Assembly: GCA_030690945.1 (NCBI GenBank) | Contig: JAUYFM010000064.1 | Coordinates: 91,072-155,071 of the forward strand | Direction: 5' to 3' | Length of the DNA stretch: 64,000 nucleotides | Origin: Smithellaceae bacterium | Lineage (GTDB): Bacteria > Desulfobacterota > Syntrophia > Syntrophales > Smithellaceae | In this document: positions 34,023 through 54,340 of the stretch, piece after piece | Layout: every line of letters starts with the position of its first letter | Numbering within the stretch: position 1 is the stretch's first letter | Notes under the pieces: model-generated | Databases searched by the model: none | What the model saw: the letters and a program-made list of their open reading frames with translations, nothing else | What the model was told of the DNA's origin: nothing | Program-made: the position numbers and the translations under genes

Positions 34023-35567
34023 TCAGGATGATTTTTCTTGCACATCATTGACCAGGGATTGCACCAGTCCCTCCATGGTGTATTCTTCCTGAGAAATATT
34101 AATTTGAAATCCTGCTTTTTTTGCGGTGGCCGCCGTTACCGGGCCAATACAGGCTATTTTTATATTGGGTGGCAACGCATAATCGGCGCCCATAATTTCG
34201 ACAAAGTTGGTCACTGTTGATGAGCTGGTAAAGGTGATCACATCCACTTCGCCCGCGTTGATCCATTCCGCCAGTTCTTCTTTTTTCCGGCCGGAATTAA
34301 CGGTCTGGTACGCCGTGACCACCTCAACTTCCGCGCCCTGTTTTTTCAGAGTTTCCGGCAGAACGTCGCGGGCCCTGCAGGCTCGCGGGATCAGAATTCT
34401 CTGTCCCGATAAATTCATCGATGCAAACGACTTCAGAATACCTTCGGCGATAAACTCGTCCGGCACCAAATCCACCCGAATGCCTTTGGCTTCAATCTGC
34501 CGGGCCGTCGCCGGACCGATGCAGCAGATTTTTATCCCCTTGAGGTCGCGAACGTCCCTGCCCTTTTCCCGCAGGCGCTCAAAAAAGAAATGCACGCCGT
34601 TGGCGCTGGTAAAAATCAACCATTGGTAGGATTCCAATTGACCAATGGCTCTGTCCAGCTCGCTCCAGTCTGAAGGCGGCTCAATGCTGATGGTTGGAAA
34701 AGCGAGAGGAGACGCCCCCTGAGCCGCCAGCAGCCTTGCCAGATCATCCGCCTGCCTTTGAGGCCTGGTGATAACCACGCCCTTGCCGAACAGTGGCTTT
34801 GAGTCAAACCAGCGTAGCTGGTTTCGCAAATCGACAACCTGGCCTACAACCAGAATGGCGGGAGGCTTGAAACTGCTGGCTTGTGCCAGATCAACAATGC
34901 TAGCCAGCGCGCCAGTGATTATTTCCTGCTGCGGCGTCGTACCGCGGCGAATCAACGCCGCCGGCGTGCCAGGCAACTTACCGTGTGAAATCAATGCCTT
35001 GGTAATCTGCCCGAGGTTTTTCACCCCCATCAGAAAAACCAGCGTACCGATTCCGCACAAAGCCTGCCAGTCGATGTCGCTTTTATCCTTGGTTGGATCT
35101 TCGTGGCCGGTAATGAAAGCTACCGTGGACGTCAGCCCCCGATGCGTGAGCGGTATGCCCGCATAAGCCGGCACCGCAATAGCCGACGTCACGCCGGGAA
35201 TTAATTCAAAGGGCACACCCTGGGCTACCAGTACTTCGGCCTCTTCACCGCCACGTCCGAAAATAAAAGGATCGCCGCCCTTGAGACGGGCAACGGTGTT
35301 GCCGACCAAGGCTTCTTTGGCCAAAAGCTCGTTGATCTTGTCCTGCGATAGTGTGTGATCGCCGCCCTTTTTACCCGCGTAAATGAAACGGGCATGCTCC
35401 GGCGCGTATTTCAGCAGTTCTTCATTCACCAGATTATCGTAAATAACTACGTCGGCCAGACGCAAAGCCTCAACAGCCTTCAGCGTGATCAACCCCGCAT
35501 CCCCCGGCCCCGCGCCGATGATATAGACTTTTCCCGGTTTTGTTTTTTCTATCATAGCTTTCAGCAC
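34023..35567 (-). CDS. cobA: Uroporphyrinogen-III C-methyltransferase / uroporphyrinogen-III synthase fusion (CobA-HemD)
   Basis: GAGPGD, RLKGGDPFIFGRGGEE; C-terminal ITRP, FTSANGV, IGPAT, FTSSSTV. Confidence 0.95.
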   Translation of the reverse strand: MLKAMIEKTKPGKVYIIGAGPGDAGLITLKAVEALRLADVVIYDNLVNEELLKYAPEHARFIYAGKKGGDHTLSQDKINELLAKEALVGNTVARLKGGDPFIFGRGGEEAEVLVAQGVPFELIPGVTSAIAVPAYAGIPLTHRGLTSTVAFITGHEDPTKDKSDIDWQALCGIGTLVFLMGVKNLGQITKALISHGKLPGTPAALIRRGTTPQQEIITGALASIVDLAQASSFKPPAILVVGQVVDLRNQLRWFDSKPLFGKGVVITRPQRQADDLARLLAAQGASPLAFPTISIEPPSDWSELDRAIGQLESYQWLIFTSANGVHFFFERLREKGRDVRDLKGIKICCIGPATARQIEAKGIRVDLVPDEFIAEGILKSFASMNLSGQRILIPRACRARDVLPETLKKQGAEVEVVTAYQTVNSGRKKEELAEWINAGEVDVITFTSSSTVTNFVEIMGADYALPPNIKIACIGPVTAATAKKAGFQINISQEEYTMEGLVQSLVNDVQEKSS

Positions 35568-47552: not shown

Positions 47553-47703
47553 AGCGGGACTCGTGAAGTGTGAAGCGTAAAAAAACCAGAAGCCCAAGGC
47601 GTTGCTTGGCAGATTGGCCGGAATAAGTCGTTAACCACGGTTTAAAGAGGTAGATACGAGATACGCTTCACGAGATGCGAAATACGAAATTTAAGGAGAC
47701 TTC

Positions 47704-48189
47704 ATGACAAAGAAAGCTTTTCAGGATTTCTATCCTGACCATTTCAGCCATTGCTATGGCTGCGGCCGACTTAATAGTGACGGTATGCAAATCAAGAGTT
47801 ACTGGGACGGGGAGGAAGCCGTTTGCGTTCACATCCCCAAAGCCTTCCACACGGGTGGCGCCCCCGGGAACGTTTACGGCGGTTTGATCGCATCCCTTAT
47901 CGATTGCCATTCCATGGGCACTGCGGCAGCGGCTAAATGCCGATCGGAAAACCGGGAACTGGGCTCTGAGCCGGCGCTGCGTTTCGTGACGGCGTCGCTG
48001 CACGTGAATTATCTCTTGCCCACGCCAATGGGCGGGCCGCTGGAAATCCGCAGCACAATCAAGGAAATCAAGGGACGCAAAATCATTGTTGAGTCGCGTT
48101 TGATCGCCGAAGGAAAGGTCTGCGCGACGGGCGAAGTGGTCGCGGTCCAAATTCCAGAACACATGACACCTAGCGACGGAAAGAAATAA
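47704..48189 (+). CDS. PaaI-family hotdog thioesterase
   Basis: CYGCG, YGGLIASLIDCH, VTASLHVNYL.PTP. Confidence 0.88.
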   Translation: MTKKAFQDFYPDHFSHCYGCGRLNSDGMQIKSYWDGEEAVCVHIPKAFHTGGAPGNVYGGLIASLIDCHSMGTAAAAKCRSENRELGSEPALRFVTASLHVNYLLPTPMGGPLEIRSTIKEIKGRKIIVESRLIAEGKVCATGEVVAVQIPEHMTPSDGKK

Positions 48190-48266
48190 AATCCCATCAC
48201 ATTGATTCAGATCAATGCTTTTTCGCTTGTGGCCTGATACTTTTTGGACCAAAAAAGGAGAGATAC

Positions 48267-48401
48267 ACGACCCGGAGAAAAATTATCGTGATCGGTGGAT
48301 CGGCCCCTATTCCCCTTGATTTTGAGAAGAAGATCGAAATACTGACGGGCCATGTGTTACAACGGAAAAAACCAGGACCTAAGAAGAAACAACGAGATTG
48401 A
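48267..48401 (+). pseudogene. Chimeric remnant: N-terminus of an FAD-dependent oxidoreductase joined to a Y1/RAYT-like transposase C-terminus
   Basis: AAGGAG RBS then ACG (mutated ATG?); reads TRRKIIVIGGSAP...FEKKIEILTGHVLQRKKPGPKKKQRD*. Confidence 0.5.
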
Positions 48402-48426
48402 ATTAGGTGTTGTGTCCCCGGAATTC
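48401..48426 (+). repeat. Direct-repeat site copy 1 (AATTAGGTGTTGTGTCCCCGGAATTC)
   Basis: 22/26 identical to 49318-49343. Confidence 0.75.
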
Positions 48427-48496
48427 CAATAAACTGATATTTCAAGACCGGACCCCATTTTTTTTGTTTATGAGTTTCTCCTCTGGTTTTCTTTTA

Positions 48497-48526
48497 TTGA
48501 CTCCACTTTCGTGAAAATGTTATAAA
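48497..48526 (+). promoter_or_regulatory. Putative promoter of the TA cassette
   Basis: TTGACT-18 bp-TATAAA with TG in the extended -10 position. Confidence 0.45.
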
Positions 48527-48568
48527 ATTAGTGAAATTATAGTTAACCGTAAGCAGGAGGCAATAAAA

Positions 48569-48811
48569 ATGGAGCAGACAGGTATTCTAAACCGGATTAC
48601 GATCCATCCGGATGTTATGGTTGGAAAACCTACGATCAGGGGGTTGCGCATCACGGTCGAACAGATACTCAAAGCTTTGGCCAATGATGTCAAAACCGAT
48701 CAATTACTCGATGATTACCCGGAATTGGAAAAAGATGATATCCGTGCCGCTCTTCTTTATGCATCGCAGCTGGTGGATGAAGAAAGAGTTTACGCTGTTA
48801 ACGCAAACTGA
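48569..48811 (+). CDS. DUF433 antitoxin
   Basis: RITIHPDVMVGKPTIRGLRITV...DYPEL..DDIRAAL.YA. Confidence 0.92.
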   Translation: MEQTGILNRITIHPDVMVGKPTIRGLRITVEQILKALANDVKTDQLLDDYPELEKDDIRAALLYASQLVDEERVYAVNAN

Positions 48812-48829
48812 TCATTGTCCAGGTGATGA

Positions 48830-49172
48830 ATGAAATTCCTTGTTGATGTTGGAGTTGGCAAGAAAGTTGAAGACTTTTTGAAGGTTAACGGATACGATAT
48901 CCTTTCTGTCAGGGAAATCGATGCGTGTGCCAGAGATTTACAAATAATGGGCCTTTGATGATCAGCGAATGATTATTACGATGGATAAGGACTTTGGGGA
49001 ACTTGTTTTCAATTCCAGCAAACAGCATGCCGGAGTTCTTATTTTGCGCCTTGAAGATGCTGATGGTGATGCAAAAGTCGAAGTGATTAAAAATATTCTT
49101 TCCAATTATTCAGATAGATTGAAGTCAAGTTTCTGCGTTTATCAAGACGGAAAGCTCAGGATTAGAGACTAA
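48830..49172 (+). pseudogene. DUF5615 PIN-like toxin, frameshifted near 48945
   Basis: MKFLVDVGVG... in one frame; WAFDDQRMIITMDKDFGELVF...HAGVLILRL in another. Confidence 0.8.
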
Positions 49173-49215
49173 AGCATTGGTTTCTCATTTCCAGCTCAAT
49201 AATTCTGATTGCAAC

Positions 49216-49265
49216 TTTGTTTTCTCTGGTTCCTAGGCTGGAGCTTGGGAACCAGAGAAAACAAA
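49216..49265. repeat. Long palindrome (REP-like or terminator) after the TA cassette
   Basis: 18-bp arms TTTGTTTTCTCTGGTTCC / GGAACCAGAGAAAACAAA. Confidence 0.75.
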
Positions 49266-49317
49266 AAGCGGTTGAAGAATAATCTCCGACCGCCATCATT
49301 TAAAACCTGTTGCAATT

Positions 49318-49343
49318 AATTTAGTGTTATGTCCCCCGAATTC
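49318..49343 (+). repeat. Direct-repeat site copy 2 (AATTTAGTGTTATGTCCCCCGAATTC)
   Basis: Matches 48401-48426 and supplies the ATG at 49329. Confidence 0.75.
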
Positions 49344-49769
49344 GCGCTGGCGGTCTGCCGGCTTTTCCCTGGTAAAACGGTACAAATCGACACACCGTGC
49401 CTGGATTGTGGACAGCCTATCCATTTAGAGATGCGAGACGGCGTGATTTTAAAAGCCGACCCGGAGGACGTAATCGGCTACGTGGCCGTTCCATTTTCCA
49501 ACTGGATGCAAGATATAAGTTTCGCCTGATCGACGATGACATTCTTCCGGTCGGAAGAACATCTTCGCAACTGGGCTCAGTTTAAACCGGAGACGGAAGA
49601 AGGGATATTCCCCCTGCCTGACCTGCTCAAACTTTTTTCAGCTCAGATGTTCCGGCGGCGCCTGGATCCCGAGTATTTTTCCCACATGCGCGAATACGTC
49701 ATGGAGTGGATCACCACGCTCACGGAAATCGGCAAGACCGGGCCTTTCTGGTCGTTGAAAAAACCATAA
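49329..49769 (+). CDS. MerB (organomercurial lyase)-like selenoprotein, Sec at UGA 49527-49529; probably 5'-truncated
   Basis: ORFs 49329-49529 and 49536-49769 are in frame; the join FA-U-STMTFFRSEEHLRNW resembles MerB FCCHVHFFAS..AEDW; SECIS-like hairpin follows the UGA. Confidence 0.75.
49535..49563 (+). promoter_or_regulatory. Bacterial SECIS-like hairpin
   Basis: GATG-aca-TTCTTCC-GGTC-GGAAGAA-CATC; loop G is 20 nt after the UGA. Confidence 0.7.
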
Positions 49770-49848
49770 TCTTCAATTGATATCCTCCGTCGGGCTCGCC
49801 CCGGGGAGGCGCAGGATTGTTGAACTTAAGATTACATGGAGGCGCTTA

Positions 49849-50883
49849 ATGTATGAACTGAAATTTAAAGAAAAAGTTTGCGCAACGTGCCCGTCATCCG
49901 ACTGTTTGCTGAAGTGCCAGTATATGTCCTTTACCGGTCACCCGGAGGCGCACGGAGAAATGATGAAAGTCGTGAAGGGCAAGGATTCCCGGGTGCTCAA
50001 TGAGTGCGTCACCTGCTATGCCTGCGAGGAATACTGCACCAGAGGCAATCACCCCTTCTACCTCATCTCCGAGCGGCGCGAAGAAAAAGGCATGTTCACC
50101 GCGCCGCGCCCCATCACTAATCAGTGGATCAACATGACCGCGATGCAGGGCAAATATCTGGCAGGCGACGTCAAGGACAAGGCGCTCTCCTGCTGTTATA
50201 TTCCGGATCTGGGGCCGCTGGGTAGCGGAGAAATTTTCAAGGATGTCGCCTCTGCGGGCGTGTTTGGCGCGGAATTCATGTGCCCTGCCGTCCATACGCA
50301 CTTTGCCCGCATGTCGGTGATCAAGGAACGGCTCCCCGTCGTCATCGAAAATTACCGCAAGCTGGGCGTCAAAGAAGTGATCTGTCTGCACGATGAATGC
50401 TACGGCACGCTGACGTCCATTGCCTCCGCCTACGGTATGGAGGTCCCGTTCAAGCCGGTTTATTACATGGATTATCTCTTCGAAAGAATGAAAGAGCTCA
50501 AAGACAAAATCAAGCCGCTGGGCATCACCGTCGCTTATCAGCGCCCCTGCTCCAACCGGCTCATTCCCGACAAGCTGCCGCTGGTGAAAAAAATATTCAA
50601 GCTCATCGGCGTGAAAGCGCCCAAAAGACTCTACCAGGATGAAAACGCTCTTTGCTGCGCGGAAATCCTCCGCTCCGTATCCGGCTACAAGCTGGCGGAC
50701 GACGTGCAGAAGCGCAACATCGACGACATGCTGAAGGCGGGCGCCGAATACTGCGTCTTCAACTGTCCGGCCTGCCAGTCGTCTCTTTCGGAAAAAGTTT
50801 CCAAAAGAGGTTTGAAACCGGTGCATATCATCGACCTGTGCAAAATGGCCATCGGCGAAAAAGGAAGGGAGGCGGTATTATGA
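49849..50883 (+). CDS. Fe-S oxidoreductase with ferredoxin and CCG-like domains (HdrD/GlcF-like)
   Basis: CxxCxxxxCxxxC, CVTCYACEEYC, YQRPC, LCC, NCPAC; GGAGG RBS. Confidence 0.8.
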   Translation: MYELKFKEKVCATCPSSDCLLKCQYMSFTGHPEAHGEMMKVVKGKDSRVLNECVTCYACEEYCTRGNHPFYLISERREEKGMFTAPRPITNQWINMTAMQGKYLAGDVKDKALSCCYIPDLGPLGSGEIFKDVASAGVFGAEFMCPAVHTHFARMSVIKERLPVVIENYRKLGVKEVICLHDECYGTLTSIASAYGMEVPFKPVYYMDYLFERMKELKDKIKPLGITVAYQRPCSNRLIPDKLPLVKKIFKLIGVKAPKRLYQDENALCCAEILRSVSGYKLADDVQKRNIDDMLKAGAEYCVFNCPACQSSLSEKVSKRGLKPVHIIDLCKMAIGEKGREAVL

Positions 50884-52262
50884 GCGACATTCTAAAATCC
50901 CTGATCGAAATTGTCGGAGAAAGAGGCGTTTCCAATGCCCCGGAAGAGCTCTGGTTTTATTCGCGCGATCCCGGCGTGCTGGCGCCGCACAAACCCGATT
51001 ATGTGGTCGCGCCCAAAACCACCGAAGAAGTGCAAAAGATTGTCCAACTGGCAGGCCGCGAAAATATCCCCGTTGTCCCGATGGGCAACGGCATGTCGCT
51101 TGCGGGGCTGGTGATTCCGCTCAAGGGCGGCATCGTTCTGGACATGAAGCGGATGAACAAAATCCTGGAAGTGAACGCCATGGGCCGTTACGCCGTTTTG
51201 GAAGGCGGGACCTCTCAGGGCATGCTCAAAGCGTACCTGCAGAAAAACCACCCCACCCTGCGGCACAGCCTTCCCGACGCGCCGCCCACAACAACCATCG
51301 CCGCCAACGTCGCCCTGCATGGTCAGGGGCGGCTGACCAATCAGTACGGCTTCAATTCCGATATGGTCACGGGGCTGGAAGTGGTGCTGCCCACCGGCGA
51401 AATCTGCCGGATCGGCTCGCCTTCGATCGGGCCCTACTGGTTTTCCAAAGGGCCCACGCTGCCCGATCTGTCAGGGCTTTTCCTGGGCTGGCTGGGTTGC
51501 ACGGGAATTATCACCAAGGTCGGTTTGAAACTCTTTCCCAACAAGAAGTTTCGGGATGTCGAACTGTTTGTCACCGACCGGGTTGACCTGGTCCCGACCA
51601 TGCTCTATAAGCTCACCCACCTGGAAATACTCGAGGACGTCAATGTCTGGTTTCAGCCCAAACCGCTGATGTTTCTGGGCAATTATCATATCACCATGTT
51701 CTTTACCGGCGATACGGAAGAAGAAATCGAATTCAAACGGAAGATGATCTGGGATGCCCTGCAGGAATTCATGGATTCGAAGGACGGCGGCTTCATGAGC
51801 GTTCAGTATATGAAATCCGCGCTTCTGGAAATGCCCGGCCGTACCATCGCCGATTTTGCCGATGTGCCCAAAGGCGGCGGTTTCGAATATTCGGGGCCGA
51901 TCGCGCTCATTGAGCATTACCCGAAGTACGCGGCCAAAGTCGTTGAGCTGGCCGAAAAGTACAACGTCCTTTACGCCAGCGCGGCCCGACTCATTTCCGG
52001 CGGACATTGTATGATGTTCAGCATTTCTTTTGCCTTCAACCGCAATGACCCGGCCATGATGGCGCGGGTGGAGAAAGCGCTTACCGAAGCGATGACCTTT
52101 GCCCTGGACATGGGTGGCGTTCCCTGGAAACCCAACTTCAAGGAGCAGAAAATGGTGATGCAAAGAATGGAGCCCAATGCACTCAAGCTTCTTCTGATGA
52201 TCAAGAAAAACCTCGACCCGCAGGGCATTATGAATCCCGGCAACTGGGAGGTGACGCCATGA
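50880..52262 (+). CDS. FAD-linked oxidoreductase (GlcD/D-lactate dehydrogenase superfamily)
   Basis: P.TTEEVQ.IV.LA, GGIVLDMKRMNKI, GLEVVLPTG, GIITK, DPQGIMNPG. Confidence 0.88.
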   Translation: MSDILKSLIEIVGERGVSNAPEELWFYSRDPGVLAPHKPDYVVAPKTTEEVQKIVQLAGRENIPVVPMGNGMSLAGLVIPLKGGIVLDMKRMNKILEVNAMGRYAVLEGGTSQGMLKAYLQKNHPTLRHSLPDAPPTTTIAANVALHGQGRLTNQYGFNSDMVTGLEVVLPTGEICRIGSPSIGPYWFSKGPTLPDLSGLFLGWLGCTGIITKVGLKLFPNKKFRDVELFVTDRVDLVPTMLYKLTHLEILEDVNVWFQPKPLMFLGNYHITMFFTGDTEEEIEFKRKMIWDALQEFMDSKDGGFMSVQYMKSALLEMPGRTIADFADVPKGGGFEYSGPIALIEHYPKYAAKVVELAEKYNVLYASAARLISGGHCMMFSISFAFNRNDPAMMARVEKALTEAMTFALDMGGVPWKPNFKEQKMVMQRMEPNALKLLLMIKKNLDPQGIMNPGNWEVTP

Positions 52263-53434
52263 CCTACATCCGACACATCGAACATGAAAACATCGTCCAC
52301 CGCTGCTTCCGCTGCGGTTACTGCAAATTTCCGGATGACTACAGCGATTTCAACTGTCCATCTTACAAGGCCTTCGGGTGGGACACCTTCTCGCCGGGCG
52401 GCAGAATGTGGCTGACCCGCGCCTGGCTGGCCGGAGAAATTGAAACCAGTCCTCGCTTTGCCGAAATTATGTTTTCGTGCGTGACCTGCGACAACTGCAA
52501 GACCCAGTGCGTCTTTCCGAAGTTTAAAGATTTCCTGACGGATATTTTTCAGGAAACACGCGCCGAACTGGTCAGCGAAGGCCGGATCCCTCCCGGTGTG
52601 CGGGATTATTTGAAAGCCGTCGCCGCAAGCGGCAACCCCTATAAACTGCCGCAGGACCAGCGCGGCGCATGGGCCAAAGGAACGGGACTGAAACCCTACA
52701 CCAGCCAGGAATATCTTTTTTTCGCGGGCTGTGTCGGCTCTTACGACGAAGTCGGTCAAAAGATGGCCCAAAGCGTGGGACGGCTGCTGGTTGATGCCGG
52801 TCTGGACGTTGGCATTCTGGGCAATGAAGAAACCTGCGACGGCAATGATGTGCGCACGTTGGGAGAAATGGGATTGTTTGCCGAACTGGCCCTGGCCAAC
52901 CTTGAGAAGTTCAAGGCCAAAGGTGTCAAGAATATTATCACCCTCGATCCTCACGCGCTCAATACCTTCAAGAAAGATTATCCGGCGCTCGGCGGAAAAT
53001 TCAAAGTGCTGCATTATACCGAAGTGGTAGCTGAACTGATTAAAAAGAAAAAAATAAAATTGAAACCCTGGCCGGTCAAAATCACTTACCACGATCCCTG
53101 CTACCTGGGCCGGCATCAGCAGATATATCAGGCGCCGCGGGATATTCTCAACGCCATTCCCAAAGCCGAACTTATTGAGATGAGCCGCAGCGGGTTAAAT
53201 GCTTTTTGCTGCGGCGGAGGCGGAGGAAACTTTTTTACGGATATTCTGGGAACGGCCCCGGACAGCGCCTCGCGCGTACGCGTCCGTGAAGCGATGGAAA
53301 CCGGCGCAGGCATCATTGCGGTTGCCTGCCCCAACTGCGCCAAGATGCTAACTGATGCGGTCAAGATGGAAAATCTGGAAGATAAACTGGAGGTTTTGGG
53401 CATTGCCGAAATTCTGGAGAAGGCCAAAAAATGA
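52259..53434 (+). CDS. Fe-S/CCG-domain oxidoreductase (HdrD/GlcF-like)
   Basis: CFRCGYC, CVTCDNC...C, YHDPCYLGR, CCGGGGG, ACPNC. Confidence 0.88.
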   Translation: MTYIRHIEHENIVHRCFRCGYCKFPDDYSDFNCPSYKAFGWDTFSPGGRMWLTRAWLAGEIETSPRFAEIMFSCVTCDNCKTQCVFPKFKDFLTDIFQETRAELVSEGRIPPGVRDYLKAVAASGNPYKLPQDQRGAWAKGTGLKPYTSQEYLFFAGCVGSYDEVGQKMAQSVGRLLVDAGLDVGILGNEETCDGNDVRTLGEMGLFAELALANLEKFKAKGVKNIITLDPHALNTFKKDYPALGGKFKVLHYTEVVAELIKKKKIKLKPWPVKITYHDPCYLGRHQQIYQAPRDILNAIPKAELIEMSRSGLNAFCCGGGGGNFFTDILGTAPDSASRVRVREAMETGAGIIAVACPNCAKMLTDAVKMENLEDKLEVLGIAEILEKAKK

Positions 53435-53460
53435 TGAACCTCGTATACTATGGCACAGAC

Positions 53461-53755
53461 TGTCATTCCAACACGCAGGCTGTGTCGCAATTACGAGAAT
53501 GAACATAAAAGTTGTCATACCGGCGTACAGACTGTGTCGTAATACCCTTTTGTCATTACGAGCCGCCTCTTAGGCGGCGTGGTAATCTCATAGATACAAG
53601 CAAGTTAAGAGATTGCTTCAGTCGCCTCGCTCCTTCGCAATGACAATTACGACACATTCTGGTAGGCCGGTATCCAGATGTCGTCCTGGCGACGGCCGGG
53701 AACAAGTCCATATTTTCCTGGATTCCGGGTCGCGCTTCGCTTGCCCGGAATGACA
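53461..53755. repeat. Nested cluster of GTCAT...ATGAC palindromic elements and a TIR element
   Basis: TIRs 53528-53543 / 53646-53661 with a GTA duplication, inserted inside a GTCATACCGGCGTAGGCCGGTATCCAG unit. Confidence 0.8.
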
Positions 53756-53812
53756 AAATAACGTCCGATTTTAACTATACTAGTCCATCACATTATAACG
53801 GAAGGAACACCA

Positions 53813-54340
53813 ATGAACAAAGAAGAAATGCTCAACGAAGTCTACAAGCGGGCGAAAACTCATGAACTCACAGGTGGCAATTGTGCGCAATGCTCTCTGG
53901 CCGCTATTTTCGAAGTGCTGGGCGTGGACGATGAAAACGTTGTCCGGGCCGCCACGGGGTTTGCAGACGGCGTGGGCCTCACCGGCGACGGTCACTGCGG
54001 CGCTTTATCCGGGGGCACCCTCGCCATCAGTTACTTTTTCGGCCGGAAAAAAGAAGATCTCGGGAACGTGGGAAAACAGCTCAAAGCCCTGCTGCTCGCG
54101 AAGAAATTTCACGAACAGTTTGTTGCAGAATTTTCCACCTGCCGGTGCCATGATATTCAAATCAAGCAATTCGGCCGTTTTTTCAATCTCTATGAGATGG
54201 AAGACATGAAGGCGGCGCAGGCCGCGGGCATGGCTGAGCAATGCTCCACGCTGGTCGGAAAAGCGGCGCGCATGGCGCTTAACATCATTCTGGAAGAACA
54301 GGCCAAAAAGGAAAAAAAGGTGGAACTACCGGTGGTGTAA
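53813..54340 (+). CDS. C_GCAxxG_C_C family putative redox protein
   Basis: NCAQ, GHCGALSG, CRC, QC. Confidence 0.85.
   Translation: MNKEEMLNEVYKRAKTHELTGGNCAQCSLAAIFEVLGVDDENVVRAATGFADGVGLTGDGHCGALSGGTLAISYFFGRKKEDLGNVGKQLKALLLAKKFHEQFVAEFSTCRCHDIQIKQFGRFFNLYEMEDMKAAQAAGMAEQCSTLVGKAARMALNIILEEQAKKEKKVELPVV

Follow-up and report, generated by a model that had tools for sequence, protein, structure and literature searches.

The closest described relatives of the locus analysed here are MerB and SaoL. In MerB, Cys96 and Cys159 bind R-Hg and Asp99 protonates the carbon, each of the three residues being described as essential (PMC10114901); the same source describes the degradation of methylmercury by anaerobes without mer genes as unresolved. 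SaoL is presented as a protein with one selenocysteine (Sec) in a CU motif that keeps Cys99 and Asp102 (Haft and Gwadz, bioRxiv 10.1101/2022.07.06.499078). A 2026 inventory of 119 families (PMC13188914) has no MerB-like entry besides SaoL, which it lists with one Sec, and the table of a 2022 review holds one MerB-like row (PMC9312934). No mention of MerB was found in the main texts of BSepDB and deep-Sep, and the literature listings searched showed no description of a MerB-like family with two Sec residues. The third described system concerns mobile DNA, namely the TIRYT elements, which are characterized by a GGGGWSAS motif (Di Nocera et al. 2013, PMC3733652; Quentin et al. 2018, PMC6006769, subclass 2.1).

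The window, a stretch of 64,000 nucleotides from a Smithellaceae genome (G000), had been proposed in an earlier note to hold a hidden selenoprotein, i.e. a MerB-like lyase with one Sec. Rereading 49329-49769 (+) reproduced the two short open reading frames joined in frame by TGA-TCG-ACG: 66 codons, TGA-TCG-ACG and a further 79 codons are read, giving 146 amino acids with U at residue 67. The in-frame TGA (49527-49529, +) is conserved in relatives and lies at the position of MerB Cys159. It is followed by the 7-bp hairpin with a GGUC loop that the note had seen, a SECIS-type upper stem-loop at 49542-49559 (+) with its first loop G at +20, which we take to be similar to the E. coli fdhF SECIS in loop and spacing. 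On its own this hairpin is modestly better than shuffled sequences, as 7 of 200 shuffles were as good for a 25-nt piece (-8.0 kcal/mol) and 15 of 200 for a 54-nt piece. A scan of the window with Rfam at gathering thresholds gave no match. The likeness to MerB was borne out by the Pfam MerB model (PF03243), which scored 58 bits on the window ORF versus a cut-off of 27. Nevertheless, the ORF is very probably not a whole working selenoprotein of 146 residues but the recently truncated remnant (49345-49769, +, codons ~94-235, the rear 60%) of a longer gene with two Sec codons, retaining a CxxC motif (PCLDC) and the second Sec site.

This longer gene belongs to a family found in a scan of GTDB genomes, which yielded 44 loci from 101 candidate stretches; a first search for DNA relatives had used the remnant as query and was biased to close relatives. 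Single-frame, full-length genes with two TGA codons and ~235 amino acids were present at 36 of the 44 loci, the rest comprising one locus with Cys at site 1, three cut by contig ends and four broken. Of 46 other genomes in the genus, 10 have a match, eight of these with the full two-TGA gene. The single Sec of the original claim is therefore the second of two, the other site lying upstream: the two UGA sites occupy the positions of MerB Cys96 and Cys159, with Glu replacing Asp99. We examined 51 other loci (L001-L052, sets that may hold one genome twice). Site 2 is TGA in all 46 that cover it, site 1 in 45 of 47 (the others being one TGC and, in a broken copy, one TCA), neither site is ever TAA or TAG, and Glu stands three codons after site 1 in 48 of 48 loci. 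Among 30 longer homologues, most of them distant, 21 have Cys at the two sites, so that at the level of the family a conserved UGA is aligned to Cys, as the note's proposed homologue check had anticipated.

A SECIS hairpin 3' of each UGA is supported by pairing at site 2 and by frozen codons at both sites. In a hand-picked set of 41 sequences (40 distinct; L002, L024, non-covering and genus loci left out), 99.3% of the cells of the site-2 stem are paired, and three of its seven pairs change on both sides, with one pair providing 17 of the 19 both-side-change cells and kinship uncontrolled. Across 41 of the 50 loci, with broken, partial and some genus loci omitted, the mean share of the commonest codon was 0.91 at five four- or six-fold degenerate hairpin positions versus 0.47 at 60 others. 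The genome carries the Sec machinery for which the note had asked, with tRNA-Sec (selC), selA, selB and selD all present, and all 37 carrier genomes searched have a selA match over the cut-off. The selD gene (G000:C8:50037-50963) itself has one in-frame TGA.

From these sequence comparisons the UGAs of the family are likely read as Sec. Were UGA a true stop, or read as Trp or Cys, the two short ORFs would be separate or meaningless, and public gene calls do take this form, being fragments that end at the UGA or read-throughs with W: among 120 matches listed, both sites are W in 53 and Cys in two, while 65 stop at site 2. The exclusive use of TGA among stop codons, the natural Cys residues at both sites, the conserved hairpins with frozen synonymous codons and the presence of selA in the carriers speak against such a reading, as do the neighbouring genes, which end in TGA, and the tRNA-Trp, which is CCA, making it extremely improbable. 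The entries of full length that carry W at the two sites (P0003-P0057) were probably produced by gene callers using a TGA=Trp code.

The intact family has the MerB fold. In L001 (234 amino acids as read) U90, E93 and U155 align to MerB C96, D99 and C159 (C160 in one gapped alignment), in agreement with the earlier placement of the window UGA near Cys159, and C112 aligns to C117. An AlphaFold model of an intact member with Cys substituted for Sec had a pLDDT of 95.5, and Foldseek gave 11 hits at E<=0.001, every one of them a MerB or MerB2 structure, with an E of 9e-11 for the shared MerB fold. The Cys96/Asp99/Cys159 triad as such is not present, the intact family having U/E/U and the window copy keeping the third position only. 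From the alignment and the model we infer a MerB-type mechanism for the intact family, in which the selenolates of U90 and U155 would hold an organometal cation while Glu93 would take the part of Asp99 and protonate the leaving carbon. By this analogy, chances are about even that the intact family is a lyase for carbon-metal bonds of some kind. The window copy, by comparison, cannot be a working MerB-type lyase because the equivalents of Cys96 and Asp99 are lost.

The break is visible in the DNA. The remnant is 80-84% identical in amino acid sequence to L001-L003 over the 49345-49769 part only, and DNA likeness to every close relative tested starts at 49345, six to 11 bases downstream of where the first UGA would lie, with a microhomology of four to five bases leaving the joint uncertain by a few bases. 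Accordingly, the ORF had been mistaken for a complete gene: the first 93 codons, including the first UGA and the Glu, are missing upstream, and the remnant shows S and F at the sites where relatives show U and E. What has stayed behind from the lost site is an orphan SECIS-type hairpin with 6 bp and a GGUCU loop (49346-49362, +). The first five codons of the 146-residue ORF (MSPEF) together with its ATG at 49329 derive from a copy of a dispersed, TIRYT-type terminal repeat (49318-49343, +). This ATG has no ribosome-binding site, pairing with the anti-Shine-Dalgarno sequence at +1.0 kcal/mol, as compared with -2.1 to -13.3 for 11 neighbouring starts. With 93 codons gone, a repeat-derived ATG and no Shine-Dalgarno sequence, the window copy does not have the makings of a complete translatable gene. 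A gene split between the remnant and an upstream ORF of 161 amino acids was considered and rejected, as that ORF is a thioesterase.

A junction at a dispersed repeat in an assembly of 69 contigs, in a lineage whose close strains are intact at this place, might also be an assembly chimera, with the organism still keeping an intact gene. The repeat is shorter than 31 bases, however, and one Logan contig of 4,437 bases from run X1 spans 47600-50400 without any difference at a depth of 11.6, although X1 is possibly the source of the assembly and would then be a second assembly, not a second sample. Moreover, the 5' half of the gene is absent from G000 in searches by tblastn with four full-length relatives, with Pfam MerB and with a 56-row profile, and the AraC gene that precedes the MerB-like gene in L002 and G006 was not found in G000 either, a genome that is 100% complete with 3% contamination. 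Gene order on both flanks of the junction matches that of the relatives, so that a chimera is very improbable and a genuine truncation remains the preferred reading. Contigs from three other studies (X2, X3 and X7) match the window from 49345 and upstream continue into KWFGQ-TGA; they differ from the window at 9 of 268, 7 of 246 and 47 of 666 bases, respectively.

The lost codons have been replaced by a foreign block of ~1 kb (~48306-49344), which stands in place of roughly 2.2-2.5 kb of L002 or G006; on the left, likeness to genome G016 runs to 48305, and the last ancestral gene on this side encodes a hotdog thioesterase (47704-48189, +). The stretch between the two repeats of the block has a GC content of 40%, the surroundings 52-55%. 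Next to its left border lies what is left of a Y1 HUH tyrosine transposase gene, a 3' stub of ~27 codons (48318-48401, +) with 80% identity to the corresponding end of the complete gene at G000:C26:35259-35930. A second repeat copy (48401-48427, +) abuts the stop codon of the stub, and 48318-48424 as a whole is 80% identical to the 3' end of the C26 transposase gene plus repeat. The cargo comprises a DUF433 antitoxin-type gene (48569-48811, +) and a DUF5615 PIN-like gene (48830-49172, +), the latter frameshifted near 48945, followed by a palindrome with 23-bp arms (49216-49265, no strand). The DUF433/DUF5615 cassette (48467-49294) recurs nearly identically with other flanks in X2, X3 and X7; in these runs the DUF5615 gene has five more bases at 48945.

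In the genome the repeat has 13 matches at <=3 mismatches, as compared with one or two in three shuffles, and in reverse complement it agrees with the TIRYT motif GGGGWSAS. Two copies flank the intact transposase gene on C26 (35221, -; 35930, +), which encodes a Y1 tyrosine transposase of 223 amino acids (PF01797) between outward-facing repeats. The anatomy of a TIRYT element or TIRtron, a Y1 HUH gene between inverted GGGGWSAS repeats, is thus present at C26, the window having the stub only; judging from this anatomy, the repeats would be moved by the transposase. A small pair of toxin-antitoxin-like genes on C26 is bracketed by a third copy at 34409. At C20:58143-59525 and C57:145815-147235 copies bracket or abut small cargo genes which by eye look like nucleotidyltransferase/HEPN and MazEF-type pairs, and several copies end in short stutters containing GAATTC. 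We had also considered the repeat as an integron attC or dif site, a view dropped once the link to the Y1 transposase was found. Taken together, a Y1 tyrosine transposase acting at the terminal repeats probably swapped the first 93 codons for the 1-kb block and would thus be the agent of the truncation.

The remnant shows no sign of decay. Its dN/dS versus five relatives is 0.07-0.17, as compared with 0.08-0.15 among those relatives, and it has four private substitutions, other sequences having two to six. We read this as a recent break; the lack of decay dates the event as presumably recent and leaves inactivity unproven. An exchange of W to R at codon 11 was dismissed as a sign of decay, since the intact L014 also has Arg and the change strengthens the hairpin stem. 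The same lack of excess amino acid change would be expected if the repeat-derived ATG were used to make a 146-residue protein with one Sec and a new or partial role, for instance metal binding by Sec67 and the CxxC motif. The ATG is in frame, the UGA and its hairpin are intact, the Sec machinery is in the genome, and the remnant folds in prediction (pLDDT 89, with an alignment of intact relatives as input). However, a recent break accounts for the lack of decay, the chance of an in-frame join is one in three, and the start has neither a Shine-Dalgarno sequence nor, in a weak scan of the + strand from 48192 to the ATG, a promoter-like site. The residues equivalent to Cys96 and Asp99 are gone, and other 5'-truncated copies break elsewhere (query positions ~75, 91 and 166). 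A profile search of 1.8 billion representatives revealed no group of stand-alone forms of 146 amino acids among the 150 matches listed, a single candidate of 153 amino acids being without the site-1 motif and looking like a distant fragment. A functional short protein is thus improbable; the truncated remnant is presumably not translated, and the window copy is likely inactive. A syntenic copy of the same genus (L055, G016:C1:506500-513500) has been cut independently, with ~the last 70 codons kept, and G016 also carries a more distant intact paralogue elsewhere in its genome.

Downstream of the remnant, genes for a CCG Fe-S protein, an FAD-linked oxidase and an Fe-S/CCG protein (49849-53434, +) correspond to those 3' of the intact gene in close relatives. 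The same genes followed by one for a C_GCAxxG_C_C protein (49849-54340) lie downstream in L007, which is more distant, as well as in the close relatives, and this gene set is a possible clue to the role of the family in this lineage; outside the closest relatives neighbourhoods vary. The note's observation that no mer genes are nearby held for the 12 neighbouring ORFs scanned, among which there is no sao gene either, and no mer or sao genes were found among 24 neighbouring ORFs of the relatives' loci scanned.

The genomes do not provide a mer operon or a MerA partner: with up to 32 candidates scored per genome, merA was over the cut-off in one of 37 carriers and in none of the candidates from G000. 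The methylation gene hgcA, by comparison, was over the cut-off in 18 of 37 carriers and in G000 (G000:C15:50294-51280, over the NCBIfam cut-off); across the genus this holds for 35 of the 47 genomes. A link of the family to mercury methylation was rejected, since within the genus the carriers are not enriched for hgcA, which matched in 8 of 10 of them versus 36 of 46 overall. By analogy with MerB, it is conceivable, if somewhat doubtful, that the intact family has a real role in methylmercury breakdown. Equally tentative is the broader suggestion of a widespread, uncatalogued organometal lyase of anaerobes that has Sec at both sites and would cleave methylmercury or another organometal without MerA. 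If true, this would supply a missing route by which anaerobes break down methylmercury, hidden as fragments by gene callers, in a lyase often found in organisms that also methylate mercury (the hgcA-bearing carriers and this genome). An intact member would make mer-less anaerobic degradation of methylmercury testable.

Apart from its chemistry, the double-Sec MerB-like family is apparently real and missing from the catalogues checked. It escapes merB surveys because its members are stored as fragments or as mistranslations with W for U. The locus in the window is also a warning that a perfect UGA, a SECIS and an in-frame ATG can sit in a truncated gene, in this case with the start codon supplied by a mobile repeat.

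How, then, does the locus compare with the known systems? With the TIRYT elements and TIRtrons the repeat shares its scattered further copies and the arrangement of a Y1 gene between inverted repeats that have a GGGGWSAS core; it differs in that copies here also bracket cargo of the toxin-antitoxin type and that one abuts a truncated host gene. SaoL, from the SAO locus, resembles the intact family as described, being MerB-like, from anaerobes, with Sec at the Cys159 position and mis-annotated as truncated. The present family does not belong to SaoL, which the note had named as an example of Sec-containing MerB-like families: versus the NF040728 cut-off of 140 bits the intact member reached 43.2 and the remnant 16.7. 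Where SaoL is described with a single Sec in a CU motif and with Cys and Asp at sites 96 and 99, the intact family shows AU or SU and carries Glu together with a further Sec in the position of Cys96. No nine-gene sao neighbourhood was seen in the neighbourhoods scanned, and the SaoC marker matched neither G000 (0/1) nor the carrier genomes (0/37), with the controls likewise giving no match. With MerB (NF033555, NF009710; PDB 3F0O, 3F2F, 1S6L) and MerB2 (5C17) the intact family shares the fold, the aligned catalytic positions and the equivalent of Cys117. It is not a member of MerB proper, as the intact protein scored 39.8 bits versus a cut-off of 200 for NF033555 and 44.9 versus 193 for NF009710. 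In contrast to MerB, to which it is ~20% identical, it has Sec for both Cys and Glu for Asp99, an extra Cys that completes a CxxC motif, and a longer C-terminal helix.
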